64,000 nt of DNA from Candidatus Poribacteria bacterium (GTDB taxonomy: Bacteria; Poribacteria; WGA-4E; WGA-3G), in NCBI GenBank assembly GCA_965197475.1, contig CBDANF010000003.1, forward strand, positions 352,001 through 416,000, given 5' to 3'. The notes beneath the pieces are model-generated. The model saw only the letters and a program-made list of their open reading frames with translations. It ran no database searches and was not told where the DNA came from. Both the position numbers and the translations under genes were made by a program. The number at the start of each line of letters is the position of its first letter. Positions within the stretch are counted from its first letter, which is position 1. Below, piece after piece: positions 40,668-58,600 of the stretch.

Positions 40668-41111
40668 ATGAAAAAGAAGGTTTTACTCCTTGCGATCTGT
40701 TTTCTAATCGTAAGTACTAACGCATTCGCAGAACTCACACAATCCGATCTTGATAATATAGACAAACTTATTAAGGCATCTGAAACTCGGATTAAGGAAT
40801 ATGTCGATTTAAAAATCAACGCTTTAGATGTCAAGTTAACCGGTCAAATCAAGGCTTTAGACGAAAGGTTAAGCGGTCAAATAGAGGCTGTAGGTGAACG
40901 GATCAATGGCGTAGGTGGACGATTGACACAAATATATGGGTTTGTGATTGCATTGGTTGCTTTGATTGCTGTGGCTGTAGCGTTGCCACAAATCCTTGTA
41001 GCAAGACAAGGAAAAGAGATGCTGCGCACACAAAACCAACGAATTGAGACGTTGCAACAAGAGATAGAAAAACTTAAACAGGAACGTATTGACAAAGATC
41101 TTAAAATGTAA
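40668..41111 (+). CDS. Hypothetical protein: signal peptide, coiled coil, TM helix, coiled coil
   Basis: N-terminal signal ending AFA; heptad repeats INALDVKLTGQIKALDERLSGQIEAV; hydrophobic FVIALVALIAVAVALP. Confidence 0.7.
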   Translation: MKKKVLLLAICFLIVSTNAFAELTQSDLDNIDKLIKASETRIKEYVDLKINALDVKLTGQIKALDERLSGQIEAVGERINGVGGRLTQIYGFVIALVALIAVAVALPQILVARQGKEMLRTQNQRIETLQQEIEKLKQERIDKDLKM

Positions 41112-41232
41112 AAACTTCCTATGAAATGGCATAACATAACCCAAGTTACTACCCGTAGAATACCACACGCAGAATTCAAAACGCGTATTCTACCCTTTCT
41201 GTTCAATTTGTGTAGGCACTAAAGAATTTAGG

Positions 41233-41427
41233 ATGTTTCTCATGAAAAATATAAAGTATTTAGGCAAAGTGGTACTGATTATTCTGGGCGTAGTTTGGTT
41301 GGGATGCTCTTTTAGTGGGTGTTCGCATAATACTCCTTTACTGTTTACCATTTTGATACTACTGTGTGTAAACACAGTGCTTTTGGTATTTTGTTTATAC
41401 TTACTTATCAAGATAATTTTGAGATAA
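41233..41427 (+). CDS. Small hydrophobic membrane protein (hypothetical)
   Basis: Two hydrophobic segments; no recognised family. Confidence 0.35.
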   Translation: MFLMKNIKYLGKVVLIILGVVWLGCSFSGCSHNTPLLFTILILLCVNTVLLVFCLYLLIKIILR

Positions 41428-41582
41428 CTGAAATAACGCTGTAGCGTGATTCTTATGTTAGGGAATCATATCTCTACAGAATGAACATTCAGAACTGAAC
41501 CGTATTTTTCACATGATAACCAAATTGAAAGAGCAAAGCGTGTTAGACTAAAAATCATAAACGAATAAATCGGAGGAATTAA

Positions 41583-42257
41583 ATGAATTTCAAACAGAAA
41601 ATCGCATATATGGCAATCGGGTGTCTATTCACATTAGCAGGTTATTTCCTTGCTACACTGGGATCAGGAGGGTTTAACCCACAAAATGCATCCGCACAAG
41701 CACCCACTCAACGAAGGTCACCTTTCACAACACCTGAGGTTAACCCACAAAATGCATCCGAACCAGCGAGTGACGGAAAGGCAATTAATGAAATTATTCT
41801 GTGTAGAAAATTGATGATAGTCAATGCTAAGGGTAAACCAGTTGCCGTTTTGGGCGATAGGGGTGAAGGAGGCGGCGCATTGTCTATCTATAACAAAGCG
41901 GGTAAAATGGTCGCTAAACTGGATAGTACTGATGGAAACGGTATGGTATCCATTTTAAACAAAGAAGGTCTACCTGTTGGATTCATGGGAGTAGATGATA
42001 GAGGACTCGGTATAATGGGCACCATGAATAAAGCAGGAAATATAGTTGCGAAATTGCAAGTAGGCAAAAATGGAAACGGCGGGTTGACCATTGCCAACAA
42101 AGAAGAGATACCAATTGCTATCATAATTGCAGACAGAAATGACAACGGTTCCCTAGTCATCACTAACAAAGAAGGGAAAGCCGTTGCTGGATTGGCCGTT
42201 ACCGACAAAGGCGGTAGACTGGGTAGTTTTTACGAAGGAAAGTGGAGATATTACTAA
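41583..42257 (+). CDS. Exported hypothetical protein with ~23-aa Gly-rich beta-hairpin repeats
   Basis: GGAGG RBS; N-terminal TM; six NKxG-type repeats. Confidence 0.75.
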   Translation: MNFKQKIAYMAIGCLFTLAGYFLATLGSGGFNPQNASAQAPTQRRSPFTTPEVNPQNASEPASDGKAINEIILCRKLMIVNAKGKPVAVLGDRGEGGGALSIYNKAGKMVAKLDSTDGNGMVSILNKEGLPVGFMGVDDRGLGIMGTMNKAGNIVAKLQVGKNGNGGLTIANKEEIPIAIIIADRNDNGSLVITNKEGKAVAGLAVTDKGGRLGSFYEGKWRYY

Positions 42258-42302
42258 CCAATTAAAAATGAATTCATAATTATGTATTAGAGGAGGAGAA
42301 AA

Positions 42303-42713
42303 ATGGCTGGATATATCAAAATCTATTGTATTGGAAATGAGACTTATGATGGCATTAACCCAATTTTTTATCAAATTTTAGTTGGAACTTCAGACCGAAT
42401 GTGGTTAGAACCGCATTATTTTGACAAGAGTTTTAGTCCCCTTGGAAAAGTTAAAGTTATTGTTCCTCCAAGCCCTAACCATCCAGATATTCTTCTTGAT
42501 GCATGTATTGCATTTAGTCCAAAGTTCTTTGAGTCATGTCCATCACTTGGTAAAGTCGCTCAAGTGCTTGCTGATGCAGAACGGATTGACTTTCACATGA
42601 AGGGTGAGCCAGTTGGTTGGGCGGAACTTCGAGAAGAATCACGCCCTTTATTCAAAGAAATGACAATTTTTGAAGCAGAACTCAGAAAAAATCAGGGACC
42701 CAGTGTATGGTAA
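42303..42713 (+). CDS. Hypothetical protein
   Basis: Strong AGGAGG RBS; 136 aa; no recognised motif. Confidence 0.7.
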   Translation: MAGYIKIYCIGNETYDGINPIFYQILVGTSDRMWLEPHYFDKSFSPLGKVKVIVPPSPNHPDILLDACIAFSPKFFESCPSLGKVAQVLADAERIDFHMKGEPVGWAELREESRPLFKEMTIFEAELRKNQGPSVW

Positions 42714-42877
42714 GATAGCTGGGTAGAATTAAAAACCACAATTTTTTGAAAAAGGATGCTCGTTGATTAACTAAATAGAATGTTTACGATGAATTGAGTT
42801 ACATGCCTACAGCTAGAAACATGTTAAGTATATTTCTACAACCGTTTTATGGGATGTATTATAGAAATGGAGGAATA

Positions 42878-43201
42878 ATGATTATTTGGGGTTCTGGAGG
42901 GAAGGTGGTTAACTGTGGTTCTGCAGGTTCACGTTACTGTGAAGTTTGTGAAAGAGAACGACAGTTCAACCTAATTTTACAATATAGGTATTGGGGTTTA
43001 TATTGGATATTTAACTTCATAACAGAAAAACAATACCTCCTGTTATGTGATATATGTAGCAGAGGTTGGGAGCTGAATAACGAAGAAGTCGAGTCAGATT
43101 TGGAAAGAGTCCCTATTCCTTTTATGCGGCGTTATGGGTGCCTCACCTTAATAGGTGGGATTGCTGCAATTGGGATTATTGGTTCTATTGGTGGATGTTG
43201 A
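42878..43201 (+). CDS. Zinc-ribbon domain membrane protein (zinc_ribbon_15-like)
   Basis: MIIWG, CEVC...CDIC, C-terminal TM; GGAGG RBS before 42878. Confidence 0.75.
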   Translation: MIIWGSGGKVVNCGSAGSRYCEVCERERQFNLILQYRYWGLYWIFNFITEKQYLLLCDICSRGWELNNEEVESDLERVPIPFMRRYGCLTLIGGIAAIGIIGSIGGC

Positions 43202-43319
43202 TTATAAATTTTATTGACAAGTAAAGTTAAGAATCTAACACCAAAGATTGCGAACTACCCAAAACCGATGCCCAACTATCAAAATATTCGCTTGTCATTA
43301 ATTACTGAGGGGTAAAATC

Positions 43320-44369
43320 ATGTATGAAATTAAGATTATTACTTTAGGCATATTTTTATTAAGTTGTGTGGTACTTCAGACTGCTATGGGTGATATCGTG
43401 ACAAAAACGCAAGTTACTACTTTTTTAGAGGCAAACTCAGAATATCCGCTAGCTGAAGAGATACATCCAAAAGCATTAGATAAACTTGTTGAACTCTATA
43501 GGGGGAGTTCAATTGAGTCTGGAGATATTGCAAGATATGGAAAGTATTTGAGTGGATTTCAAAATCTTAAATCTGTTTTCTATGAGATTGTAGGAATGGT
43601 AAAGCTTTCAGATTCTGCGATATTAGTAGGAGAGTATTTTATTTTATCTTACGGAACTGACCCGTTACAAAAGTACGGCAGGCATTTACACTCATTGGAT
43701 GTAGATCAGAGGTCAAAGATAGACACAATAGTCTGGAATAAGAAATTGACAGGTGCCAATCGTCGTAGCAATGTGAAGAAATACTTGCGAGAGTTACGAT
43801 TATTTAATAACGAATCTGATCTACAGACCTTTGTTGATAATCTTTTTATTGCTTATATTCATTCACATCTTTGGGTTGAGGAAAAGAAGGAGAGGTTAGG
43901 TAACTCTCTGATTACTAGCCACGACTATTTTCGAGGGAACCTTAGATTAACCAATACACTTTCTTTTTTTCCACATGAGAAAACCAAGTTTGTTTCTGCT
44001 TTTAGAGAATTAGAAAACCAGGGGTTTATTGAAATCATGGACGCTCAGGATCCTGCAGCGCGGAATGGTATTCAACATACTCTCGCTAGAATGCCTCTAA
44101 GGAATGGTGAGATCGTAATTATACCTGTTCTTACATTGCTTTCACCCATCAGACATGGTCTGAAAGCAAAGAAGGATCTCCAATTTTTACGCATTATTTA
44201 TCCACATTTCAAAGAAGGTGTCCGTACAAAGAATTGGAAAAATTTCGCAACCAAGATGGAACAACGCGGACATAGAGACCTTATCAATAAAGCGCAGCGA
44301 GTGGCATATATCAGATTTTTGCCCCCATGGCCGATTCCAGTTTCAAACAAAGTTAACCGAGGACATTAA
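43320..44369 (+). CDS. Exported hypothetical protein
   Basis: GAGGGG RBS, signal-peptide-like N-terminus, 349 aa. Confidence 0.7.
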   Translation: MYEIKIITLGIFLLSCVVLQTAMGDIVTKTQVTTFLEANSEYPLAEEIHPKALDKLVELYRGSSIESGDIARYGKYLSGFQNLKSVFYEIVGMVKLSDSAILVGEYFILSYGTDPLQKYGRHLHSLDVDQRSKIDTIVWNKKLTGANRRSNVKKYLRELRLFNNESDLQTFVDNLFIAYIHSHLWVEEKKERLGNSLITSHDYFRGNLRLTNTLSFFPHEKTKFVSAFRELENQGFIEIMDAQDPAARNGIQHTLARMPLRNGEIVIIPVLTLLSPIRHGLKAKKDLQFLRIIYPHFKEGVRTKNWKNFATKMEQRGHRDLINKAQRVAYIRFLPPWPIPVSNKVNRGH

Positions 44370-47497: not shown

Positions 47498-48325
47498 ATG
47501 AAAAAAGACATCGTCTACCTCCACACTAAAAAACAGCAGCAACCCATCACCGTGCTGACATGCTACGATTACCCCACCGCTTGCATGCAGGACGAAGCAG
47601 GTATTGACATCGTGTTTGTTGGGGATAGTGTCGGCACAAATATTCTCGGCTATAAAAGCGAAATGGAAGTAACGATGGCAGATATGCTACATCACCTCAA
47701 GGCAGTCCGCCGCGGTGTAACAAATGCCTATCTCCTCGTTGATATGCCCTATGCCGCTGATCGGAATTTGAAGCAAGCCATTGCGAATGCAAATCTCTTT
47801 TTAGATGCTGGGGCTGATGGTGTTAAATTGGAAGGCGGAACAGAAAAAGTCCCCATTGTTACTGCACTTACTGAGCAGAGAATAGAGGTCTGTGCACACA
47901 TCGGACATAACCCACAAATTCACGGCACCAAAGCGGCGACGCACGGAAAAACATTCGCTAAAGCGAAGGAACTCATTGAAACAGCGTCAGCACTTGCAGA
48001 TGCGGGCGCAAAACTCATCGTTCTTGAGAAAATCACCGAAGAGGTAAGCCAAATCATAACGGATACGCTTGCCATTCCTACCATCGGCATCGGGGCAGGT
48101 AGGTTTTGCGATGGACAGGTGCTCGTTATCAACGATGTTTTAGGAATAGGCACCCCTTTCAAACACGCCAAACGTTATCAGGATTACAACCAACTTACCT
48201 TTGAAGCAATATCGCAATATAAACAAGAGGTAGAAAACGGCAGTTTTCCAACAGATGCCAACGTTGCCCACATCGCCGCTGATAAGTTGATACGCGTGCA
48301 GAAGTGGTTGGAGTCAGAACGTTAA
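47498..48325 (+). CDS. panB: 3-methyl-2-oxobutanoate hydroxymethyltransferase
   Basis: LTCYDY, VGDSVG, VDMPY, VKLEGG, PTIGIGAG..CDGQVLV. Confidence 0.93.
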   Translation: MKKDIVYLHTKKQQQPITVLTCYDYPTACMQDEAGIDIVFVGDSVGTNILGYKSEMEVTMADMLHHLKAVRRGVTNAYLLVDMPYAADRNLKQAIANANLFLDAGADGVKLEGGTEKVPIVTALTEQRIEVCAHIGHNPQIHGTKAATHGKTFAKAKELIETASALADAGAKLIVLEKITEEVSQIITDTLAIPTIGIGAGRFCDGQVLVINDVLGIGTPFKHAKRYQDYNQLTFEAISQYKQEVENGSFPTDANVAHIAADKLIRVQKWLESER

Positions 48326-51282
48326 TGTCCCTCTGCTTTTTCTCCTACATTGATACCTTTGAGGACTTCATCCCAATCCCACAAAAGAATTGTGCCGTCT
48401 TGTCCCGTACTCACAAGCGTTTTGCCATCGGGTGAGAACACCAACGTTTGCACTGGTGCTGTGTGTCCATCAAGTGTAGTGAGTTTGTCTCCTGTTTCCA
48501 TGTCCCATAACTCAATTCTATGATTATTAAGTCCAGCAACAAGGATGCGATTGTCTGGTGAAAACACAAACACTTCAACACCAAACGTTTTGGCACCCTG
48601 GGACACTTCCTTAAAAGCGATCTGTTCCTTAATCTCAATCAAACGGATTTGTTTATGAGTTGCGATAGCAAGCAAATTGCCATTTAGCGAGAATGCCAGT
48701 GTTTGAATAGATTCCTGATAATGGATGCCACTATTAGCTTTGCCTCTTAATACCGGTTCCTCTCCCGTAAAGAGAAGTGCTAACGGAACTCCAGTTTTCG
48801 CATCCCACATCTGCACTTTTCCGTCCATGGTTCCACTGACAAGTTTTTTGCCGTCTGGCGAAAAAACTAAAGCCCTGATTTTAGACTTAAACTTGCGATT
48901 ATTGTTCTGATATGAGAGGGATATTTTAGGGAGAGATATATCAGAAGTCTCACCTGTCTCTGTATTCCATAGACGAATCTTACCAGAAGCACCGAATGCC
49001 ACCGTTTTTCCATCAGGTGAAAAAGTCACGGATGAAAAAAATCCTTTTTTCGCAGCCAAAGTCTGCAATTCACGTCCCGTCCTAACATCACTCAGACGAA
49101 CCAGCGGCTCAGCCCACCTTATAGGGGCATGTGGAAAGGCTCTATTACCTTTTACACGAAAACTGACGAGCTTTGTCCCATCAGGCGAAAACGCTGAAAC
49201 CGATAAAAGTTGATATGTTTCTGGGTAGAAATCGGTTTTTTGTAATGCATTCGAACCTGTTTTTTGTGATGTTTTCACATCCCAAAGGCTAATTACCTCA
49301 TCATAAGCGATACTCGCAAGCGTGGTGTTATCTTTAAAGAAAGTTGCTGCTTCCACCTCCATTGTGTGTCCGGTGATGCGTGTGGGTAATAGATCCCCAT
49401 TTTTGATATTCCAAAATCGGACTGTGCCCATTGTAGTTCCACCGGCAAGTGTGCGATTATCTGGTGAAAACGTTAAAGCATTGATGCCGCCGGTATGACC
49501 TGTGAAAGTGGTGATAGACTCACCAGTGGCGATATCCCACAATTGCACTGTCTTATCTCTCCCTCCGCTTGCCAGCATTTTTCCATCCGATGAGAATGCT
49601 AACGCGTCGACCCACCTCGTGTGTTTGTCAAGGAGAATAGATTCCTTGCTGTTGATATCCCATAATTGTAATGGGACTATTTCATTATTATTTTTACCTG
49701 CACTCGCGAGACGGGTGCCATCAGGTGAAAATTCCAAGGCTAAAAGAGATATGTTTCCCTTGAGTGTAAACAGTATTTTTCTGGTTGTTGTGTCCCACAA
49801 CTCAATCCTGGTTCCTACGCCAATTGCAAATTTATCATGTGTGAGCGCATAGCATCCAGGATCATCGAACGTCCCTGTCTGTTCTTCAATACGCTTCCAC
49901 ATTCCTTTGCCGGTTTCAACATCCAGCAGGCTGAATGTGTCTCCCTCGTCACCCAAAGCAAAAAGTGTTTTGCCATCTGCAGAGAACCGCAATACTGAGG
50001 CATGCGGAAAAAAACGAGTGAGTTGCATTTTCTGACCGGTAGCTACTTCCCACAACTGGAGTCCCACTGCGTACAACCGGGGTCCCTTTCTGCGATAACT
50101 GCCAATACTGCCTGCAAGGAAGCGTCCGTCTGGAGAAAATGCGATGGATTCGTACTTACCGGGAAACATGGATACTTCTTTACCCGTTTTCGCATCATAA
50201 AGCCACAAACCGATATCGCTGCCTACTGCAAGCAGCTTCCCATTCGGTGAGAATTGTAGCACATTAATCCCGCCTTTTCCCAAGCGTGCCTTTGCCTCTT
50301 TTGGCAATTCCCATTTTGTCCAATCTTTCACAATTTCATCTCCTTGTGCCTCTGTAATTGCTTCAGGAGCATCATTAGGTTGCTGTTCTGGGTTATTAAG
50401 CTTACCCAGTGCACTCACGTTTCCTATTTGCATTCGTACATCTGGTTTAGATTCCAAATTCACGACTATAGGTGCATCAATAATATCAATCGTCATCTCC
50501 GAGTTAGCATCAAAATTATAGGGATCCTGAAAACGAGTCAAGTATTTGCTATTTCCAAAACCGAGCATGAGCAACACCACTGCTAATGTAGAAGCAGCAA
50601 TCGCCCACGGCACTAACGGTCTACTGCCAGATGGCGCGTCAGGTTTGATACGTGCAATCTCACGCATAATAGTATCAGTGAGATTCGGGGAAATTTGGAA
50701 ATTGTCTAATGCCTCTCTTATCATTGGTTCCTCCTTTTTCAAACGCTGCTGTGCGCGACGAAGCCGACTCTTAACCGTATTTGCAGATACACCTAAAAAC
50801 GTACCTATCTCTGTGCACGACATCTCTCCGAAGTAATGGAGTGTCATAACAGTGCGTTCACTCTCCTCAAGCTTCGCAAGCAGTTTTTTGACGACATCGC
50901 GTTGTGCTTGTCCAGATATGCGCTTGTTTTCTTCAACGACAAATTCGGAGTACGCGGCTTTTTCTAATTGCTCCTTGTCTGCCTGCTCCAGATGCTCCAA
51001 CGACTGTGTCCACAAACGCTTTTTACGCAGCCAGGAGCTGCAGCGGTTCGCTGCAATCACATAAAGCCAACCCACGAAACGCTGAGGTTCCTTCAGGGTT
51101 GTCAATCGCTTGTATGCTTTCAGGAATGTATCCTGCGTAATCTCTTCAGCGATATGAAAATCTCCGATTTTCCGCCACGCAAGCGCGTGAACCTGTTTTT
51201 GATACTTTTCCACAAGCTCCGCGAAAGCGGTATCATCACCTGAGAGAACGCGTTGAATAAGCTTAACATCGTCGTTTTTCAT
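48322..51282 (-). CDS. ECF sigma-70 factor with TM helix and C-terminal WD40 propellers (copy 1)
   Basis: Sigma2 AEEITQDTFLKAY..F.GWLY.IA.N; sigma4 EIGTFLGVSANTVKSRL; TM PWAIAASTLAVVLLMLGFG; many FSPDG..WD repeats; GGAGG RBS before the ATG at 51282. Confidence 0.9.
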   Translation of the reverse strand: MKNDDVKLIQRVLSGDDTAFAELVEKYQKQVHALAWRKIGDFHIAEEITQDTFLKAYKRLTTLKEPQRFVGWLYVIAANRCSSWLRKKRLWTQSLEHLEQADKEQLEKAAYSEFVVEENKRISGQAQRDVVKKLLAKLEESERTVMTLHYFGEMSCTEIGTFLGVSANTVKSRLRRAQQRLKKEEPMIREALDNFQISPNLTDTIMREIARIKPDAPSGSRPLVPWAIAASTLAVVLLMLGFGNSKYLTRFQDPYNFDANSEMTIDIIDAPIVVNLESKPDVRMQIGNVSALGKLNNPEQQPNDAPEAITEAQGDEIVKDWTKWELPKEAKARLGKGGINVLQFSPNGKLLAVGSDIGLWLYDAKTGKEVSMFPGKYESIAFSPDGRFLAGSIGSYRRKGPRLYAVGLQLWEVATGQKMQLTRFFPHASVLRFSADGKTLFALGDEGDTFSLLDVETGKGMWKRIEEQTGTFDDPGCYALTHDKFAIGVGTRIELWDTTTRKILFTLKGNISLLALEFSPDGTRLASAGKNNNEIVPLQLWDINSKESILLDKHTRWVDALAFSSDGKMLASGGRDKTVQLWDIATGESITTFTGHTGGINALTFSPDNRTLAGGTTMGTVRFWNIKNGDLLPTRITGHTMEVEAATFFKDNTTLASIAYDEVISLWDVKTSQKTGSNALQKTDFYPETYQLLSVSAFSPDGTKLVSFRVKGNRAFPHAPIRWAEPLVRLSDVRTGRELQTLAAKKGFFSSVTFSPDGKTVAFGASGKIRLWNTETGETSDISLPKISLSYQNNNRKFKSKIRALVFSPDGKKLVSGTMDGKVQMWDAKTGVPLALLFTGEEPVLRGKANSGIHYQESIQTLAFSLNGNLLAIATHKQIRLIEIKEQIAFKEVSQGAKTFGVEVFVFSPDNRILVAGLNNHRIELWDMETGDKLTTLDGHTAPVQTLVFSPDGKTLVSTGQDGTILLWDWDEVLKGINVGEKAEGH

Positions 51283-51332
51283 TTGTGCACCTCCGGAAGA
51301 AATGGTTGCATCACACTCTGGGCTTATAAATT

Positions 51333-51361
51333 GTGACGCTACTTTGGAGTGCAATGGGTGC
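51333..51361 (-). promoter_or_regulatory. Putative ECF promoter GCACCC-N17-CGTCAC (copy 1)
   Basis: Boxes and spacer length are conserved before all three sigma genes while the spacer sequence differs. Confidence 0.55.
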
Positions 51362-51735
51362 ATAATTCTGCAAATATAGAAGTGTGTTTAGATAAGAGAG
51401 TAAGAGATTTATTTTACAGATATGAAATCTAAGAGAAATTATAGCGGACTCTATCAAAATATCGTCCGTTAACTGATTATAATTCCTCTGTTAGTAGAAT
51501 TATACCATAAATCTGGTTTCTGGGAGGGATTTTCTAAAAAAATAGATTTCTTGGAAAGTTCGATCCGGATTTACGTAAAGTTTGGTTACACGTTATCCTT
51601 TTGAGATGCATAGCGCGCAAGGTGACATGACAAATTGTGCAAGCCTATTTCTTACACTGCCAGTTTTTATGTGAGGTAACAATATTCAAATGTTTAAACG
51701 GTGGGTCTTCTAACTGCCTAAATACCTTTATTCTC

Positions 51736-54714
51736 CTACCGGTCCAACCCCTTGAGGACTTCATCCCAATCCCACAGAAGGATGGTGCCATCTGCCCCAA
51801 CACTGACAAGCGTTTTGCCATCAGGTGAAAATACCAACTTTTCAATTGATACCGTGTGCCCATCAAGCGTAGCGAGTTCGTCTCCAGTGGCTATATCCAA
51901 TAACTGAATACTGCCTCCTATAAGTCCAGCAGCAAGCACGGTATTATCTGGTGAAAACACTAATGCCTCGTCATATTTATGTGCACGATGGACAATTTCG
52001 TCATTTACTACTACGACAATCTCGGACACTTCCTTAAAGTGAGGTTTTTTCTGACTTCCGAATAAACGTATCTGTTCCCTATTTCCTACTGCAAGTATAG
52101 CACCATCTGAAGAAAACGCCAACGCTGTAATTCGGATTCCTGAATACATAGCGTGAAGTCTTCTATCTACTAATGTATTGCCTATCCCATGTGCTATAAG
52201 GTAGGTGGCTAACACAACACCAGTTTCTGCATCCCACATCTGAACTTTTCCATACGTGGTTCCACTGACAAGTTTTTTTCCATCGGGTGAGAACAGTAAA
52301 GCACTAATCATAGGCACGGACTTATTGGACTTATCGTTCGGATCTGAGAGAGAAATATCAAAATTTTCACCTGTCTCCGTATTCCACATGCGAATTCTAC
52401 CGTGACCGCCGAGAGCTACCGTTTTCCCATCAGGCGAAAAAGCCATTCCTGAAATACTACTACCCTTTGGCTCCGTCAAGCTCGCTAGCTCACGTCCGGT
52501 ACTGACATCAGTCAAGCGGATCAGTTGATGATCTGTGTTGACAAGCTTTGTCCCATCAGGTGAAAACGCTGAAATCCATAACAACTCGCGATGCCCTTTA
52601 GTCTGGAAAGCAGATTCTTGTTGTGTCTTTAGATCCCAAAAGGTAATTATGCCGTTAAATGCTATACTTGCAAGCGTCTTACTATCTTTATAGAAAGCTG
52701 CCCCTTTCAGCCAATTTGTGTGTCCAGAGATGTTTGTCGGTAGGGGATTCCTTGTTTCTGTATCCCAAAACAGAACTTCGCCATCTGCACTTGCACTTGC
52801 AAGTGTGCTACCGTCTGGCGAAAAAGTTAGCGCAGTAATTCTGTTTATATGTCCATCAAGCGTCGCGAGTAGTTTACCTGTAACGGTATCCCACAAGCGA
52901 ACCATTTTTTCGTTACGCCCGATGATGTTACCTCCGCTGGCGAGCATCTTTCCATCAGGAGAGAATGCTAACATTTCTATCCAACCGGTAGGTTTTTGGA
53001 AGGTAATCGGCTTGTTGTTGTTAGCGGTGTCCCATAATTGCAGTGTTGTATGATCGCTCACAGTAGCGAGTCGCGTGCCATCAGGTGAAAACGCCATGGC
53101 TGATACACGGTTGTCCGACCACCTTATACCACCCAACAATTGATCAACCTTTAAATCAATTACATCTCTTAAATCACTTAAATCATTTTCTTCATTTTCT
53201 CTGAGTGTGGATAATTTCTCACCAGTTGTTGTGCTCCACACCTCAATTCCGCTACCACTTCTGCCAATAGCGATTTTATCCTGCGTGAGCGCGTAGACTT
53301 CGTCAACATAACCAGATCGTTTTTCCAATTTATTGACAGTCTGCTGCCCTGTCTCAACATCTAATCTGCTAATTGTGTCTCTTGATTTACGCAAACTGAC
53401 AAGTTTTTTTCCATCTTCAGAAAACCGCATTACTTCCGCAGCAGCCTGTGCATCGTGAGGTGTCACTTTACGAACAGTAACAATCTCCCACAACTCAAGA
53501 CCTCTTTCAAGGCGACTACCACCGCGCGAGGATAAGGGATCGTGACCACTATTTGCAAGGAAGCGACCATCGGGTGAAAAAGCGAGTGATCTGCATATTC
53601 CTGGAAATAGAGAAATTTCCTTACCTGTCTGTACATCATAGAGCCACACACCGATACTACCACCTACCGCGAGTAGCGTGCCATCGGGTGAAAACTGCAT
53701 CGCATTAATTCCGCCCTTTCCTAAACGCGCTTTCGCCTCTTTCTGCAATTCCCATTTTGTCCAATCTTCCGTTATTTCGTCCGCTTGTGCCTCTGCAATT
53801 GCTGCAGGAGCATCGTTAGGTTGCTGTTCAGGGTTGTTACGCTTATCAAGTGCATTAGCATTTCCAATTTGCGTCCGCACCTCAGGTTTGGACTCCAAGT
53901 TCGCGACTATAGGAGCGTCAATAATGTCAACCGTCATCTCTGCGGTAACATCTAAACTATAAGGTTTTTGAAAACACGCCAGGTATCGCTGGTTTCCAAA
54001 ACCGAGCATGAGCAATACCACTGCTAACGTGGAAGCAGCTACTGCCCACGGTATTAAAGGTCTACTGCCGGAAGGTGCAGCAGGTTTCATACGGGAAATC
54101 TCTTGCATGATGCTTTCAGTAAAATTCGGTGTAATTTTGAAATTGTCTAAAGCTTCTCTTATCATCGGTTCCTCCTTCTTTAAACGCTGCTGTGCGCGGT
54201 GAAGTCGACTCTTAACCGTATTTGCCGATACACCTAAAAACGCACCGATCTCTGTACACGACATCTCTCCAAAGTAATGTAGTGTCATGACAGTGCGTTC
54301 ACTTTCCCCAAGTTTCGCAAGCAGTTTTTTGACAACATTGCGTTGTGTTTCTATAGTGATCTGCTCATTTTCCACAACGACATGCTCGGAATAGGTCACT
54401 TTTTCAGGCTGGGCAACGTCCATGCCTTCCAACAACTGCCTCCGCAAATGCTTTTTACGTAACCATGTGCTGCAGCGGTTTGTAGCAATCACATAAAGCC
54501 AGCTTGCAAAACGCTGCGGTTTCTTCAACGTTCCGAGTTCCTGATACGCTTTCAGGAATGCATCCTGCGTAATCTCTTCGGCTATGTGAAAATCTCCGAT
54601 TTTCCGCCACACAAGCGCGTGAACCTGTTTCTGATATTTTTCCACAAGTTCCGCAAAGGCTGTCTCATCGCCATCAAGAATACGGTGGATTAATTGCACA
54701 TCATTGTTTTTCAT
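51736..54714 (-). CDS. ECF sigma-70 factor with TM helix and C-terminal WD40 propellers (copy 2)
   Basis: Same architecture as copy 1; 992 aa. Confidence 0.9.
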   Translation of the reverse strand: MKNNDVQLIHRILDGDETAFAELVEKYQKQVHALVWRKIGDFHIAEEITQDAFLKAYQELGTLKKPQRFASWLYVIATNRCSTWLRKKHLRRQLLEGMDVAQPEKVTYSEHVVVENEQITIETQRNVVKKLLAKLGESERTVMTLHYFGEMSCTEIGAFLGVSANTVKSRLHRAQQRLKKEEPMIREALDNFKITPNFTESIMQEISRMKPAAPSGSRPLIPWAVAASTLAVVLLMLGFGNQRYLACFQKPYSLDVTAEMTVDIIDAPIVANLESKPEVRTQIGNANALDKRNNPEQQPNDAPAAIAEAQADEITEDWTKWELQKEAKARLGKGGINAMQFSPDGTLLAVGGSIGVWLYDVQTGKEISLFPGICRSLAFSPDGRFLANSGHDPLSSRGGSRLERGLELWEIVTVRKVTPHDAQAAAEVMRFSEDGKKLVSLRKSRDTISRLDVETGQQTVNKLEKRSGYVDEVYALTQDKIAIGRSGSGIEVWSTTTGEKLSTLRENEENDLSDLRDVIDLKVDQLLGGIRWSDNRVSAMAFSPDGTRLATVSDHTTLQLWDTANNNKPITFQKPTGWIEMLAFSPDGKMLASGGNIIGRNEKMVRLWDTVTGKLLATLDGHINRITALTFSPDGSTLASASADGEVLFWDTETRNPLPTNISGHTNWLKGAAFYKDSKTLASIAFNGIITFWDLKTQQESAFQTKGHRELLWISAFSPDGTKLVNTDHQLIRLTDVSTGRELASLTEPKGSSISGMAFSPDGKTVALGGHGRIRMWNTETGENFDISLSDPNDKSNKSVPMISALLFSPDGKKLVSGTTYGKVQMWDAETGVVLATYLIAHGIGNTLVDRRLHAMYSGIRITALAFSSDGAILAVGNREQIRLFGSQKKPHFKEVSEIVVVVNDEIVHRAHKYDEALVFSPDNTVLAAGLIGGSIQLLDIATGDELATLDGHTVSIEKLVFSPDGKTLVSVGADGTILLWDWDEVLKGLDR

Positions 54715-54739
54715 AGATCACCTCCGATTTCACCCTATA

Positions 54740-54768
54740 GTGACGCCATGAAACGGTGAAACGGGTGC
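54740..54768 (-). promoter_or_regulatory. Putative ECF promoter GCACCC-N17-CGTCAC (copy 2)
   Basis: Same boxes and 17-bp spacer as copy 1. Confidence 0.55.
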
Positions 54769-54795
54769 ATAATTCTGCAAATAGGAGTGTGTTTA

Positions 54796-54920
54796 TACCA
54801 ATTCTGAAAAATAAAATACCATTACGGAAATTTATGACATTTTGAATGTCCGAGGCGCAATGAATTGCGCGAGGACAAACGCGTTTTTTGTTTATGAGAT
54901 GCTATCATTCAGAAATGGTA
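54796..54920. mobile_element. TA-flanked MITE with TIRs TACCAATTCTGAA / TTCAGAAATGGTA (IS630-like ends); carries a GCGCAATGAATTGCGC REP core
   Basis: TA on both flanks; it begins exactly where similarity to the upstream regions of copies 1 and 3 stops (GTGTGTTTA). Confidence 0.7.
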
Positions 54921-54938
54921 TAACTACACAAATTTATT

Positions 54939-57848
54939 TTATTTTTTTGTTCCGGACGATCCTTTAAGGACTTCATCCCAATCCCACAAAAGAATTGTGC
55001 CATCACCTCCTGCACTAACGAGTGTTTTACCGTCAGGTGAAAATGAGAACACATTCGGTGCGCCAGTGTGTCCACCAAGCGTTTTGAGAACCTTACCGGT
55101 GGTCACATCTCGTAATTGAATTCCACCACCAATCAGACTGAGAATAAGCAAGGTATTATCTGGTGAAAACACCAATCCATCCCAAAACAGATCAGGCTCA
55201 GAGGAAATTTCCTTAAAATGAGGTATTTTCGGACTCCCCAACAGATGAATCTGTCTCATATACACAACAGCAAGTAAGGAACCATCTGAAGAGAAGGTCA
55301 AATTCATAAGGGCTCCAGATTTCGGAGGCGGCTTATCAAAGAAGGATGTTAAGTGAACCCCAGTTTTAGCATCCCACATCTGAACTTTTCCGTCACTGGT
55401 TCCTGCTACAAGTTTGTTACCGTCCGGAGAGAAGGCAGCAGCACTGATCCATGCAGGTTGATCCGAAAAACGAATATCAAGAGTTTTATCTGTTTCTGTA
55501 TTCCACAAGCGAATTTTACCGTAGGTACCCCTGTGAGCACTGAACACTACCGTTTTGCCATCTGGAGAAAAAGTTAGATTTGGAGTAACATTTTCGTTAG
55601 AATACGTCAAGCTGGTCAACTCACGTCCGGTGGTGACATCAATCAAGCGAATCCGTGAAGTCGTTCCCAGAGGTTCAGTCGGGGTGTTTAGTATACCCTT
55701 GCTGGCAAGTTTTGTTCCATCGGGTGAAAACGCCAATGGGATGGCTTCTAAACAGTACCTCGTATTCTCAAAAGCAGTTTTAGTTCGGTGTGTGGTTCTT
55801 TGTGATGTCTCCAAATCCCATAAAGTGATTATTCCGCTATAAGCAACACTTGCGAGCGTGGAACTACCATTCATGAAACTTATTATTTCCAATTCATCGG
55901 TGTGTTCTGTAATTTTTGGCGGTAACTGATCTCCTGTTTTGATATTCCAATACAGGACAGTACCATCTTCACTTGCACTCGCGAGTATGCCGCCATCTGG
56001 TGAAAACGCTAAATAGTGAACGAGACCGATATGCCCTTTAAAGGTTGTGATCAATTCACCGGTGGTAGTATCCCACAATTTCACATTCTGACCTTCTCCA
56101 CAGGCAAGGATTTTTCCATCCGGAGAGAATAACAGGACATTTGGACCATCAACTAGCTCCTGAGTGGATCGCAACAGCACTCGACTTAGCGATTGTTTTT
56201 GGAGGAGGATAGGTTCATCGTTGCCTGTAGTATCCCATAAACGTACGGTTCTATCTTGTTTTCCACTGGCAAGGCGCGTGCCATCCGGTGAAAATGCCAA
56301 GGATATAACACGGTTAAAACCTATTCCTTTAACACCCTCTGCTTGAAGCCTTTCTGCTGGTCCTGTGAGTGTAGACACCTTTTTACCAGACTTTGAGTTC
56401 CACAACTCAAGTATTCCACTATCTTCAACTATCGCGACTTTGTCGTGTGTGAGCGCGTAGACTTCACGGGGATGTGAATCCAGTCGATTTTCAATCTTCT
56501 TAACATTACTCTTTCCGGTATCTGTATCTACCCAACAGATAGTATCTCCTGATTTATTCAGACTGACAAGTGTCTTGCTGTCTTTAGAGAACCAAAACGT
56601 AGATGCAGCAGGCAGCGAATCGTGTAGCGTTACTTTTTGACCTGTAGCTACCTCCCACAACGTAGTGGAGTCACCCCCACCATTGACAAGGAAACGACCA
56701 TCGGGTGAAAATGCCAAGGATCTGCATATTCCCGGGAATAGCGATATCTCCTTACCAGTGTTTACATCATACAACCATACACCTATACCACTACCAACAG
56801 CAAGTTGCTTACCATCTGGGGAAAACTGAATCCCTGTAATCCAACTTTTTCCCAAACGCGCTTTTGCCTTTTTCGGCAATTCCCATTGCGTATAATCTTT
56901 CACGGTTTCCTCCGTTTGTGTTTCTTCAGTTAATGTTGCGATGTTATCATTCGGCTGCTTTTCAGGATCATTTAGCTTTGCCAATGCGTTGGTATTTTTG
57001 ATTTGCGTCCGCACATCTGGTTTGAATTCCAAGTTCGCTACTATAGGTGCATCAATGATGTCAACCGTCATCTCTGCAGAGGCATCGAAACTATAAGGTT
57101 TCTGAAAACGTGCTAAAAATTTACTGTTTCCAAAACCCAACATTAGCAACATCACGACAACTGTTGAAGCAGAAATTAACCATGGCACGAACGGTTTGCT
57201 GCCAGACGGTGTGATAGGTTTTGTTTGTGAAATCTTACGCATGATGTTTTCTGTCAGATTTGGTGTGATTTTGAAATTGTCTAAAGCTTCTCTTATCATC
57301 GGTTCCTCCTTCTTTAAACGCTGCTGTGCGCGGTGAAGTCGACTCTTAACCGTATTTGCCGATACACCTAAAAACGCACCGATCTCTGTACACGACATCT
57401 CTCCGAAGTAATGTAGTGTCATGACAGTGCGTTCACTTTCCCCAAGTTTCGCAAGCAGTTTTTTGACAACATCGCGTTGGGTTTCTATAGTGATCTGCTC
57501 ATTTTCCACAACTATATGCTCGGAATAGGTCACTTTTTCAGGCTGGGCAACGTCCATGCCCTCTAACAACTGTCTCCGCAAATGCTTTTTACGCAACCAT
57601 GTGCTGCAGCGGTTTGTAGCAATCACATAAAGCCAGCTTGCAAAACGCTGCGGTTTTTTCAACGTTCCGAGTTTCTGATACGCTTTCAGGAATGTATCCT
57701 GCGTAATCTCTTCGGCTATGTGAAAATCTCCGATTTTCCGCCACACAAGCGCGTGAACCTGCTTCTGATATTTCTCTACAAGTTCCGCGAAAGCTGCCTC
57801 ATCGCCATCAAGAATACTTTGGATTAATTGAGAATCACTGTTTTTCAT
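54939..57848 (-). CDS. ECF sigma-70 factor with TM helix and C-terminal WD40 propellers (copy 3)
   Basis: Same architecture as copy 1; 969 aa; sigma domain nearly identical to copy 2. Confidence 0.9.
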   Translation of the reverse strand: MKNSDSQLIQSILDGDEAAFAELVEKYQKQVHALVWRKIGDFHIAEEITQDTFLKAYQKLGTLKKPQRFASWLYVIATNRCSTWLRKKHLRRQLLEGMDVAQPEKVTYSEHIVVENEQITIETQRDVVKKLLAKLGESERTVMTLHYFGEMSCTEIGAFLGVSANTVKSRLHRAQQRLKKEEPMIREALDNFKITPNLTENIMRKISQTKPITPSGSKPFVPWLISASTVVVMLLMLGFGNSKFLARFQKPYSFDASAEMTVDIIDAPIVANLEFKPDVRTQIKNTNALAKLNDPEKQPNDNIATLTEETQTEETVKDYTQWELPKKAKARLGKSWITGIQFSPDGKQLAVGSGIGVWLYDVNTGKEISLFPGICRSLAFSPDGRFLVNGGGDSTTLWEVATGQKVTLHDSLPAASTFWFSKDSKTLVSLNKSGDTICWVDTDTGKSNVKKIENRLDSHPREVYALTHDKVAIVEDSGILELWNSKSGKKVSTLTGPAERLQAEGVKGIGFNRVISLAFSPDGTRLASGKQDRTVRLWDTTGNDEPILLQKQSLSRVLLRSTQELVDGPNVLLFSPDGKILACGEGQNVKLWDTTTGELITTFKGHIGLVHYLAFSPDGGILASASEDGTVLYWNIKTGDQLPPKITEHTDELEIISFMNGSSTLASVAYSGIITLWDLETSQRTTHRTKTAFENTRYCLEAIPLAFSPDGTKLASKGILNTPTEPLGTTSRIRLIDVTTGRELTSLTYSNENVTPNLTFSPDGKTVVFSAHRGTYGKIRLWNTETDKTLDIRFSDQPAWISAAAFSPDGNKLVAGTSDGKVQMWDAKTGVHLTSFFDKPPPKSGALMNLTFSSDGSLLAVVYMRQIHLLGSPKIPHFKEISSEPDLFWDGLVFSPDNTLLILSLIGGGIQLRDVTTGKVLKTLGGHTGAPNVFSFSPDGKTLVSAGGDGTILLWDWDEVLKGSSGTKK

Positions 57849-57873: not shown

Positions 57874-57902
57874 GTGACACCATGAAACGGTGAAATGGGT
57901 GC
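57874..57902 (-). promoter_or_regulatory. Putative ECF promoter GCACCC-N17-TGTCAC (copy 3)
   Basis: Same -35 box and 17-bp spacer as copies 1 and 2, with TGTCAC in place of CGTCAC. Confidence 0.5.
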
Positions 57903-58102
57903 ATAATTCTGCAAATAGGAGTGTGTTTAGATAAGAGAGTAAGAGATTTATTTTACAAATATGAAATCTAAAGGGAAATTATAGCGGACTCTATCAAAAG
58001 TATCGTCCGTTAGCGAATTATATTTCTTCTGTTAGTAGAATTATACCATAAATCTGGTTTTTGGATGGATTTTCTAAAAGAATTAGGTTTCATGGAAAGT
58101 TC
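57903..58102 (-). repeat. ~200-bp upstream region duplicated at 51362-51561, containing an extended -10 (TGGTATAAT)
   Basis: Long near-identical blocks (GATAAGAGAGTAAGAGATTT, AGCGGACTCTATCAAAA, GTTAGTAGAATTATACCATAAATCTGG). Confidence 0.85.
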
Positions 58103-58105
58103 TTA

Positions 58106-58600
58106 TACCAATTCTTGTATATTTATCCTTTTAAAAATTTTCAATTTCTGCTACACTTTTTCAATTTTACAAATCATAGGATTGACACCAATGAACATAA
58201 AGCCTCCACAGATTACAGAAAGTATTTCAGGGTTGAAATGTCATGGCTCAATAGTGTCCGTTTCCAAATATTCATTGATAAGTTCGCAAAAACCTTTCCA
58301 GAGACGCTAAATATCCTTGTGCTTGATAATGGTCGTTTTCATCAGGCGAAATCCCTACAACTTCCTGACAATATTGCTTTGCTTTTTCTACCCCGTTATA
58401 GTCCAGAGTTGAACCCGATCGAAAGGTTCTGGCAAGACTTTAAAGCCAAGTTGTTTCAGCACGCGTGGGAGTCAATAGAGTAAATGCAGGAAAAATCACA
58501 CAAGTTTTGAAAAATTATACTCAGGCAGCTATTGCCCAAATCACAAATTTTAGTTATTTCACGAAAGTCGAAAATGAGATATAATTATTAAGAAATGGAA
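58106..58600 (+). mobile_element. Internally deleted IS630-family element (transposase pseudogene)
   Basis: DDE_3 motifs LVLDNGRFH and FLPRYSPELNPIERFW; in-frame stop at 58481; N-terminal remnant MNIKPPQITES at 58191; ends TACCAATTCTT / AAGAAATGGAA. Confidence 0.8.

Follow-up and report, generated by a model that had tools for sequence, protein, structure and literature searches.

Tandem candidate sigma/anti-sigma/sensor hybrids with a shared predicted promoter in a Candidatus Poribacteria genome

Three adjacent genes, here named A, B and C, each encode an extracytoplasmic function (ECF) sigma factor, a transmembrane (TM) helix and a WD40 ectodomain on a single polypeptide. They lie in a 64,000-nucleotide stretch of Candidatus Poribacteria DNA (contig CBDANF010000003.1, positions 352,001 to 416,000; hereafter the window). 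The explanation favoured overall, with moderate confidence, is that these proteins and their paralogs are membrane-anchored sigma/anti-sigma/sensor hybrids sharing one promoter, through which many outside cues probably converge on one cell-surface response.

The sigma-TM-ectodomain arrangement in one polypeptide, as read from all three genes, is close to certain. The first-pass annotation of this DNA had described adjacent, co-oriented genes of about 1000 codons with a sigma2/sigma4 head, a single TM helix, about two propellers of WD40 repeats and conserved heads joined to divergent, indel-bearing propellers, and each of these descriptions is borne out. The open reading frames (ORFs) are intact in the window ORF list and encode one polypeptide each on the minus strand (Table 1). 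All three heads pass TIGR02937 at 98-100 bits (cut-off 42.9) and contain sigma2 and sigma4 without sigma3, as ECF sigma factors do (in gene A, Sigma70_r2 at residues 23-89 and Sigma70_r4_2 at 131-180). Each protein has one hydrophobic segment (19-residue Kyte-Doolittle hydropathy 2.09-2.15), located at about residues 223-243 in gene A and 220-240 in genes B and C. Scores for PF00400 reach 176-220 bits in the three proteins, and a locally built blade hidden Markov model (HMM) recognizes 14 blades per protein, some of them weak, corresponding to two 7-bladed propellers. Heads are 78-95% identical and propellers 51-55%, the latter with 91-104 gap columns. The juxtamembrane motif noted earlier is real, but it covers about 45 residues (244-290) followed by about 30 variable ones, not some 90 conserved residues.

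Sequence features favour a propeller outside the cell and a sigma head inside. The WD40 region of gene A opens with a motif that also starts the signal-peptide-bearing WD40 proteins of the genome; it begins 33 headless WD40 ORFs, of which 19 have a signal-peptide-like N-terminus. In other family members, C-lectin, LamG and Vps10 domains occupy the same position as the propeller. The head itself is closest to SigW (32% identity) and AlgU/RpoE, which are envelope-stress sigma factors.

The absence of an anti-sigma gene nearby, also claimed earlier, stands for a separate gene, none being found beside the array among panB, an IS630 fragment and an oxidoreductase, but not for the proteins themselves, in which a two-helix anti-sigma-like segment is fused after sigma4. 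An AlphaFold2 model of residues 1-220, obtained from a 77-row alignment (predicted local distance difference test, pLDDT, 82.5; predicted template-modelling score, pTM, 0.78), places two helices after sigma4, at 185-193 and 201-212 (pLDDT 81-89), with the TM helix starting at 223. A short two-helix cytoplasmic segment ahead of a single TM helix is the layout of class II anti-sigma factors. The modelled head superposes on the closed complexes SigW-RsiW (Z 15.3, root-mean-square deviation (rmsd) 4.4, 157 residues aligned), CnrH-CnrY (Z 14.2, rmsd 3.4, 151 aligned) and RpoE-NepR (Z 12.4, rmsd 4.0, 151 aligned), and does not superpose on sigma forms bound to RNA polymerase (rmsd ~28). From this model it is quite probable that the two helices, referred to below as the clamp, hold the head closed in cis. 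From a shallow alignment of 19 rows AlphaFold2 produced a poor model (pLDDT 50.5), which was set aside, and a complex prediction of head 1-184 with residues 187-220 scored 0.23 against a mark of 0.32 and is counted neither way.

Head and clamp remain fused in frame across several families. No stand-alone clamp-TM protein occurs among the 120 of 555 matches listed, all of which are fused or fragments, and locus L059, considered as an ancestral sigma/anti-sigma pair, was rejected as a broken gene having a stop at the junction and no start codon after it. A profile of clamp and TM helix matched no Atlas cluster; its match to a Notch3 TM peptide (E 0.0014) was discarded as a likeness of hydrophobic helices. 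The clamp may be a general coupling module, because in more distant Poribacteria (L118, L119, L121, L122, L104, L099 and L129) the same post-sigma4 helix pair and junction methionine precede soluble domains. These domains are presumably HEAT-like, DUF151-like, cyclase-like and ankyrin-like. The juxtamembrane strand may resemble TonB-type segments, and the Ala-rich start of the TM helix may resemble ClpXP degrons.

The clamp begins at a second potential start of translation. In all three window genes AAGGAGG stands five bases ahead of the Met187 ATG, and a Shine-Dalgarno (SD) sequence with an in-frame start is found at this junction in 17 of 24 genes of the same genome, 51 of 94 same-family genes and 22 of 30 divergent genes, compared with ~1% of control windows. 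This internal SD is at least as strong as the one at the 5′ end; the start persists between paralogs of 50-60% identity and in other families, and one paralog keeps it as GTG. Both SD codons end in G in 52/80 genes that have the start codon versus 1/16 that lack it (Fisher 1e-5, the related genes not being independent), the genome background being 10-12% of Lys/Glu-Glu pairs. Losses of the start codon are scattered over about ten or more places in a quick tree used for this alone. Because loss of the start codon is accompanied by decay of the synonymous SD bases, the internal signal is shown, at the level of sequence comparison, to be under selection. A second, headless clamp-TM-propeller product is reasonably likely, and at 88 kDa it would share the plan of an ordinary anti-sigma factor.

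A promoter common to the family is highly probable from the upstream sequences. The predicted element, TGCA(A/C)C-N17/18-CGTCA, lies upstream of 22/24 genes examined in the same genome (leave-one-out score at least 14.4 bits) and of 90/94 family genes in related genomes. Conservation is higher in its boxes than at most positions of the spacer, and the -35 box is followed by a T-tract, a feature described for ECF promoters, where it is proximal to -35 (PMC5758882). The position equivalent to RpoE Ser172 is reported to set promoter base -34 (PMC7776599). When base -34 was left free in the search, C was found there in 93 of 94 genes with Ser172 and in none of the five with Asn or Leu, which represent about two independent changes; nine genes had no site. 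Reading of this promoter by the family heads is supported because base -34 follows the published Ser172 code. The first-pass annotation had proposed one shared regulon: a single promoter does stand ahead of 24 of the 26 family loci in the genome, but a minority of paralogs appear to read variant -35 boxes and form a minority sub-channel. For gene A, the start codon at 51282 (MKNDD) is most likely the true one, rather than the first ATG at 51363, because the predicted promoter sits between both codons.

With an extended promoter matrix, trained on 30 regions upstream of family genes, the genome yields 35 sites scoring over 20 bits, compared with 0-1 for four shuffled matrices; 11 lie ahead of genes outside the family and none ahead of the genome's 18 other ECFs. 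The simple pattern matches 43 times in genome G050, versus 9 for the control. Among 30 of these inspected, 7 precede family genes, 19 (above 20 bits) precede other genes and 4 are chance; the products of 16 of the 19 non-family targets have hydrophobic (signal or TM) N-termini, and the targets include Kelch, PD40, FG-GAP, LamG, PA14, C-lectin, DUF4097 and AhpC proteins and ATP-binding cassette (ABC)/MacB exporters. Both G000 and G074 have an operon with an ABC ATPase behind the promoter. No regulon is drawn from G080 and G109, where the simple pattern barely exceeds the control (28 vs 20 and 13 vs 11). Relatives in other Poribacteria families, upstream of which the matrix gives no score, seem to use other -35 boxes.

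The repertoire of receptors proposed earlier turns out to be wider than WD40 proteins. A genome-wide count gives 26 loci with this head in the genome (5.7 Mb, 92.7% complete): 22 with TM helix and linker, two without TM helix and two truncated. The ectodomains of the 22 are of WD40 type in 10 (seven assigned on motif counts), BNR/Vps10-type propellers in 10 and CarboxypepD_reg in two, one of these with a C-type lectin. Several loci carry stops, frameshifts or insertion-sequence (IS) insertions, some of which may be assembly errors. Among the best 150 distant representatives at 50% clustering, classed by motif counts, 51 are BNR, 39 WD40, 51 other and 9 short; Pfam searches of 42 of the 51 others identify LRR, Kelch, TPR with trypsin, LamG, transglutaminase, AhpC/redoxin, PD40, Reg_prop, GHL15 and further domains, about half of the 42 having no Pfam match beyond the head. 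Across the phylum a match at E 1e-60 occurs in 130/151 genomes, and at this threshold most genomes of the two best-sampled genera have at least 15 family matches; two sister families have 1-4, and up to 14-16 more distant fused ECFs if scored fully. Among 77 aligned heads, 75 have Cys81 and 51 have Cys156; both occur in all three window genes and in 41/102 distant representatives.

Heads and bodies have followed different courses. Sequence comparison indicates that promoter and head are exchanged among paralogs by gene conversion: for genes B and C dS is 0.13 in the head and ~1 in the body, the shared tract running from the promoter to about codon 195, and genes A and C share a stretch further upstream. 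Across 15 close, disjoint pairs dS is higher in the head (0.61) than in the propeller (0.34), as expected if heads move between bodies. A near-consensus sigma70 promoter (11 of 12 positions) lies antisense within the heads of B and C (window 54329-54357 and 57463-57491, plus strand), probably one chance site copied by conversion. The pooled ratio of nonsynonymous to synonymous change (dN/dS) is 0.07 in sigma4, 0.10 in sigma2, ~0.2 in clamp, TM helix and linker, and 0.31 in the propellers; blade cores and most loops are under purifying selection (0.07-0.7), and three 10-residue stretches of the propellers reach 0.94-1.01. Whether propeller divergence is neutral and uniform had been raised as a check; it is neither, the whole head standing at 0.12, the propeller at 0.31 and a few loops near 1.

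Taken together, a mechanism can be proposed in which the hybrid is anchored in the cytoplasmic membrane with the sigma head inside and the double propeller outside. At rest the two helices would clamp the head closed in cis, as modelled, while the TM helix keeps it off DNA. An outside event at the propeller, either ligand binding or damage, would trigger a site-1 protease and then an RseP-like site-2 protease, releasing, after clamp trimming, a head of ~22-27 kDa, to judge from IutY and RsiW. The released heads, nearly interchangeable, would read TGCA(A/C)C-N17/18-CGTCA and thereby switch on the receptor genes, giving positive feedback, along with genes for exported repeat proteins and for ABC exporters. 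The headless clamp-TM-propeller protein might act in trans on the common pool of heads, either as an anti-sigma buffer or as a decoy. Proteolytic release, by analogy with the IutY/RseP type (PMC5411451, PMC10202637), is somewhat favoured. ClpX, an M50 protease and three S41 proteases are encoded in the genome. In 83 of 105 representatives the TM helix begins with small-residue pairs, as would suit a site-2 protease substrate. For specific ligands of the ectodomains the chances are about even.

A broader extension of this scheme is tentative. The two-product genes, giving a full sigma-receptor and a headless anti-sigma receptor, could form a genome-wide network with many inputs and one output. 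Conversion of promoter and head would keep the pooled heads interchangeable, headless forms would set a shared threshold, and positive feedback would turn any sufficient input into one programme of surface remodelling; new sensors would be gained when the chassis becomes fused to exported repeat proteins that belong to its own regulon.

Several observations weigh against the hybrid scheme or parts of it. Concerning topology, the positive-inside bias across the TM helix is small (net +1 to +3 inside versus -2 to 0), and propellers of this type appear to occur in the cytoplasm too, because 14/33 headless ones lack a signal peptide and one family member couples head and WD40 without a TM helix. 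Concerning the clamp, the closed model may reflect likeness to SigW rather than the clamp; the resemblance of clamp helix 2 to helix 4 of 12 zinc-binding anti-sigma (ZAS) factors from these genomes is weak (12.9 versus at most 9.4 in 60 shuffles; probability 1.4%); and the clamp-TM profile matches no anti-sigma chain in the PDB and no Pfam family convincingly. PrsW was not found in the genome at its 92.7% completeness. No propeller stretch exceeds a dN/dS of 1.01, which leaves diversifying selection for new ligands unsupported, and 24/35 strong promoter sites are the receptors' own, largely in the training set. The second product appears dispensable for individual genes, because the SD is weak in 34/91 of those that have a start codon at the junction, and 25/116 have no start codon there; synonymous tests on single genes mostly fall short of significance (p 0.02-0.26).

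These last results, together with the loss of the signal in many lineages and the SD and ATG found at the junction in fused ECFs of three other kinds in the genome, are what would be seen if the internal start were a relic of an ancestral sigma/anti-sigma gene fusion yielding no useful second protein. This account is possible but doubtful: a relic would hardly persist between 50-60% identical paralogs and in other families (22/30), be retained as GTG in one paralog, or lose its synonymous SD bases just where the start codon has gone, in about ten or more scattered places.

It is unlikely that the ectodomains are interchangeable bulky tripwires whose unfolding or clipping, by envelope stress or host proteases, frees the head, so that there would be effectively one input and hence one output. 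The ectodomains are indeed very heterogeneous, including enzymes and thioredoxin folds, propeller change looks relaxed rather than positively selected, the head is nearest to envelope-stress sigmas and truncating the IutY ectodomain is described as sufficient for activation (PMC5411451). On the other side, lectin-type domains (C-lectin, LamG, Vps10/BNR) recur, blade cores and most loops are under purifying selection, and a single input is hard to square with the retention of at least 15 copies by most genomes in two genera.

Less likely again is a primary role in surface display, the headless anchored eukaryote-like repeat protein being the main product and the promoter with the sigma head a portable self-amplifying cassette spread by duplication and conversion. 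The conversion tract does span promoter, head and internal start, the internal SD equals or exceeds the 5′ one, the domain types of the ectodomains recur in regulon targets, a paralog with a stop at codon 58 keeps SD, ATG and body intact, and many family loci are broken or hit by IS elements. The heads, however, are under the strongest constraint (dN/dS 0.07-0.10 in sigma4 and sigma2), their in-frame fusion to the clamp is kept across several families, the 120 listed clamp-TM matches include no stand-alone protein, and the internal start is lost in 25/116 genes. The paralog in question (L002:9336-12347; G000 C3:2774335-2777346, minus strand), whose promoter, internal SD, ATG and BNR body are intact, could make the headless form only.

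Least probable, by a little, is signalling without proteolysis, in which, as in CnrYXH, the TM helix would pass on a conformational signal that opens the clamp, leaving the head to act while tethered or governed by the Cys81/Cys156 pair: the closed model matches CnrH-CnrY, where release comes about through a change of conformation (PMC6851896), and Cys81 and Cys156 are frequent (75/77 and 51/77 heads), but an uncut head would stay at the membrane with only ~35 residues between sigma4 and TM helix, both cysteines occur in only 41/102 distant representatives, the TM helix has the small-residue opening mentioned above, and IutY, the one hybrid tested, is described as needing RseP (PMC5411451).

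The preferred reading, of membrane-anchored hybrids, has several partial precedents. In IutY of Pseudomonas putida (ECF243) a ~23 kDa head is described as being released by Prc and RseP (PMC5411451). As in the present family, one polypeptide joins a cytoplasmic ECF head, a TM helix and a periplasmic domain, and S41 and M50 proteases are available here. In contrast, IutY is one FecI/FecR-type gene to which a TonB-dependent receptor relays the signal, whereas 26 paralogs with unrelated ectodomains share one promoter here; WD40 replaces the FecR domain, and no TonB-dependent receptor occurs among the neighbours. The two-helix segment between sigma4 and TM helix and the internal start are further differences, the available passages on IutY mentioning no start codon or SD.

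The first-pass annotation had named ECF57 (ECF01-Gob) as the known case of ECFs with TM and WD40 extensions; placing the present genes there fails on phylum, TM number and promoter conservation when set against the published description. ECF57 is given as 100% planctomycetal, with ~2 TM helices, a completely conserved Cys pair and a promoter that is not conserved, and WD40 lies in the extension of 21% of ECF57s2 (PMC7826278). The family studied here belongs to Poribacteria, has one TM helix by hydropathy, a variable sigma4 cysteine and a strongly conserved promoter (90/94). What is shared is an ECF head with TM helix, extended by WD40 in some members, the presence of cysteines, perhaps at equivalent positions, in both sigma domains (PMC7826278, PMC8999054), a proposed release from the membrane and expanded paralog sets (PMC8567305). 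A plasmid tblastn search returned generic ECFs at no more than 36% identity and no ECF57 reference.

Actinobacterial ECF52/48/53 proteins such as SCO4117 combine sigma factor, fused anti-sigma, TM helix and extracytoplasmic binding module, with autoregulation and proposed proteolytic release (PMC5826349). They differ in carrying a ZAS zinc finger and a Pro-rich stalk with a carbohydrate-binding module and in being single-copy in S. coelicolor (PMC5826349). No HxxxCxxC or other His/Cys motif and no zf-HC2 match was found between sigma4 and TM helix here, and the Poribacteria family lies outside the Actinobacteria to which those groups are confined. As far as these sources describe them, the family works like the IutY, ECF52 and ECF57 hybrids, yet falls outside the definitions of ECF57 and ECF52.

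For the clamp, the parallels are CnrH-CnrY (4CXF), RpoE-NepR (5UXX) and SigW-RsiW (5WUQ/5WUR), in which two helices hold sigma2/sigma4 closed. CnrY is described as a single-pass anti-sigma with 45 cytoplasmic residues forming two helices equivalent to RsiW alpha3'-alpha4' (PMC6851896, PMC6101532, PMC5358783), the same plan as the predicted headless product. These anti-sigma factors, however, are encoded by separate genes, their sequence likeness to the clamp is weak or undetected, and CnrY needs the sensor CnrX. The nearest known repertoire, from the part of the account available, is the SigI/RsgI set of Clostridium thermocellum, with many paralogous systems and diverse extracytoplasmic sensor modules in one genome (PMC6056542). 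There the genes are separate, the sigma factor is the non-ECF sigma I and the heads are 36-45% identical and mostly promoter-specific (PMC6056542), whereas here they are fused, ~54-95% identical, exchanged by conversion and served by one promoter. Neither this family nor an internal start in a sigma/anti-sigma fusion was found in the literature searched, subscription papers lying mostly outside it.

The positions of the features are collected in Table 1. The array is flanked by a convergent panB on one side and by an IS630 fragment and a Gfo/Idh/MocA oxidoreductase on the other; the panB-adjacent locus recurs in 20/69 related loci, with 1-2 family genes visible in the 11 kb retrieved. The IS630-family transposase fragment (window 58061-58483, plus strand) lies directly upstream of the gene C promoter, and a similar fragment terminates a five-gene array in locus L002. 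Between genes B and C there is a dispersed repeat with inverted ends (window 54791-54925, core 54841-54889), resembling repetitive extragenic palindromes or miniature inverted-repeat transposable elements, with 47 blastn matches in the genome and very high depth in four sequencing runs. A low-GC stretch (37-41%; window 40668-44369) contains small ORFs, five of which had no Pfam match (three scanned at E 0.001, two at 1e-5). A generic scan for sigma70 promoters and terminators remained at chance level (22 vs 21.4; 8 vs 10.5). Two metatranscriptome runs touch 28 and 26 of 30 bins; as contigs with 5% of words, they are uninformative on expression, starts and strand.

Table 1. Positions of the array genes and of the features predicted within and upstream of them (window coordinates)
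Feature	Position	Strand	Description or basis
Gene A, 986 aa	48322..51282	-	ECF sigma 1-186, two-helix anti-sigma-like segment 187-220, TM 223-243, linker 244-290, 14-blade WD40 ~319-975
Gene B, 992 aa	51736..54714	-	Architecture as gene A
Gene C, 969 aa	54939..57848	-	Architecture as gene A; shares a homogenised promoter and head with gene B
Gene A WD40 region, 14 blades	48358..50328	-	PF00400 and local blade HMM
Gene A TM helix (223-243), Ala/Ser-rich cytoplasmic half	50554..50616	-	Hydropathy
Gene A residues 187-220, candidate class II (CnrY/NepR-type) or RsiW alpha3'-alpha4'-like anti-sigma segment	50623..50724	-	AlphaFold2
Gene A internal SD and ATG (Met187), in frame, at the sigma4/anti-sigma junction	50722..50736	-	Predicted 88 kDa headless product
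Gene B internal SD and ATG	54163..54177	-	Sequence
Gene C internal SD and ATG	57297..57311	-	Sequence
Gene A predicted autoregulatory ECF promoter (TGCACC-N18-CGTCA), 49 nt from start codon	51334..51362	-	Promoter matrix
Gene B predicted autoregulatory ECF promoter (TGCACC-N18-CGTCA)	54741..54769	-	Promoter matrix
Gene C predicted autoregulatory ECF promoter (TGCACC-N18-TGTCA)	57875..57903	-	Promoter matrix

Elsewhere, a promoter-led unit at L132:2702-8225 (G000 C3:1378701-1384224, minus strand) comprises an ABC ATPase, an unknown exported protein and a TolC-type efflux gene and is interrupted by a transposase; its ATPase is the one also found behind the promoter in G074. Tandem units behind a variant family promoter at L134 (G000 C3:1747000-1766999) and L135:4128-5463 encode an exported two-Cys peptide of ~54 residues, a single-pass PPPG..GHWH protein, secreted proteins and a terminal STT3-like oligosaccharyltransferase, and are possibly a peptide or glycoprotein surface system. 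A second fused-ECF group in G000 (C2:686917-691224, C3:3153169-3154875 and C3:3778809-3780518), joined to FtsZ with DNA polymerase III alpha, to WD40 and to another domain, likewise keeps SD and ATG at the junction. Among distant representatives, the head of P0144 is fused to an N-terminal domain of DNA polymerase III beta and that of P0147 to a beta/gamma-crystallin domain; the ectodomain of P0077 ends in ..DDESC, as if, we presume, cut at a selenocysteine codon.

The source organism had been called a probable sponge symbiont. Its assignment to Poribacteria stands, and its symbiont status is presumed from that phylum (PMC3909097); of the 69 related loci, 66 are titled Ca. Poribacteria and three 'uncultured bacterium'. 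The word 'sigma' is absent from the main text of PMC3909097. Paralogous sigma systems usually evolve away from cross-talk, and this family appears to keep it; a convergent (OR-gate) design, with at least 15 receptors in the majority of genomes from two Poribacteria genera, would, if true, be unusual. Since head, promoter and clamp are short and portable, the main claims are approachable in heterologous hosts although the organism is uncultured. For some of the WD40, LRR, TPR and lectin proteins that are listed among the symbiosis factors of sponge microbes, the findings suggest a role that can be tested, and, should the tentative network prove true, many of the repeat proteins called 'eukaryote-like' in Poribacteria would act as receptors of cues from the host or from microbes.

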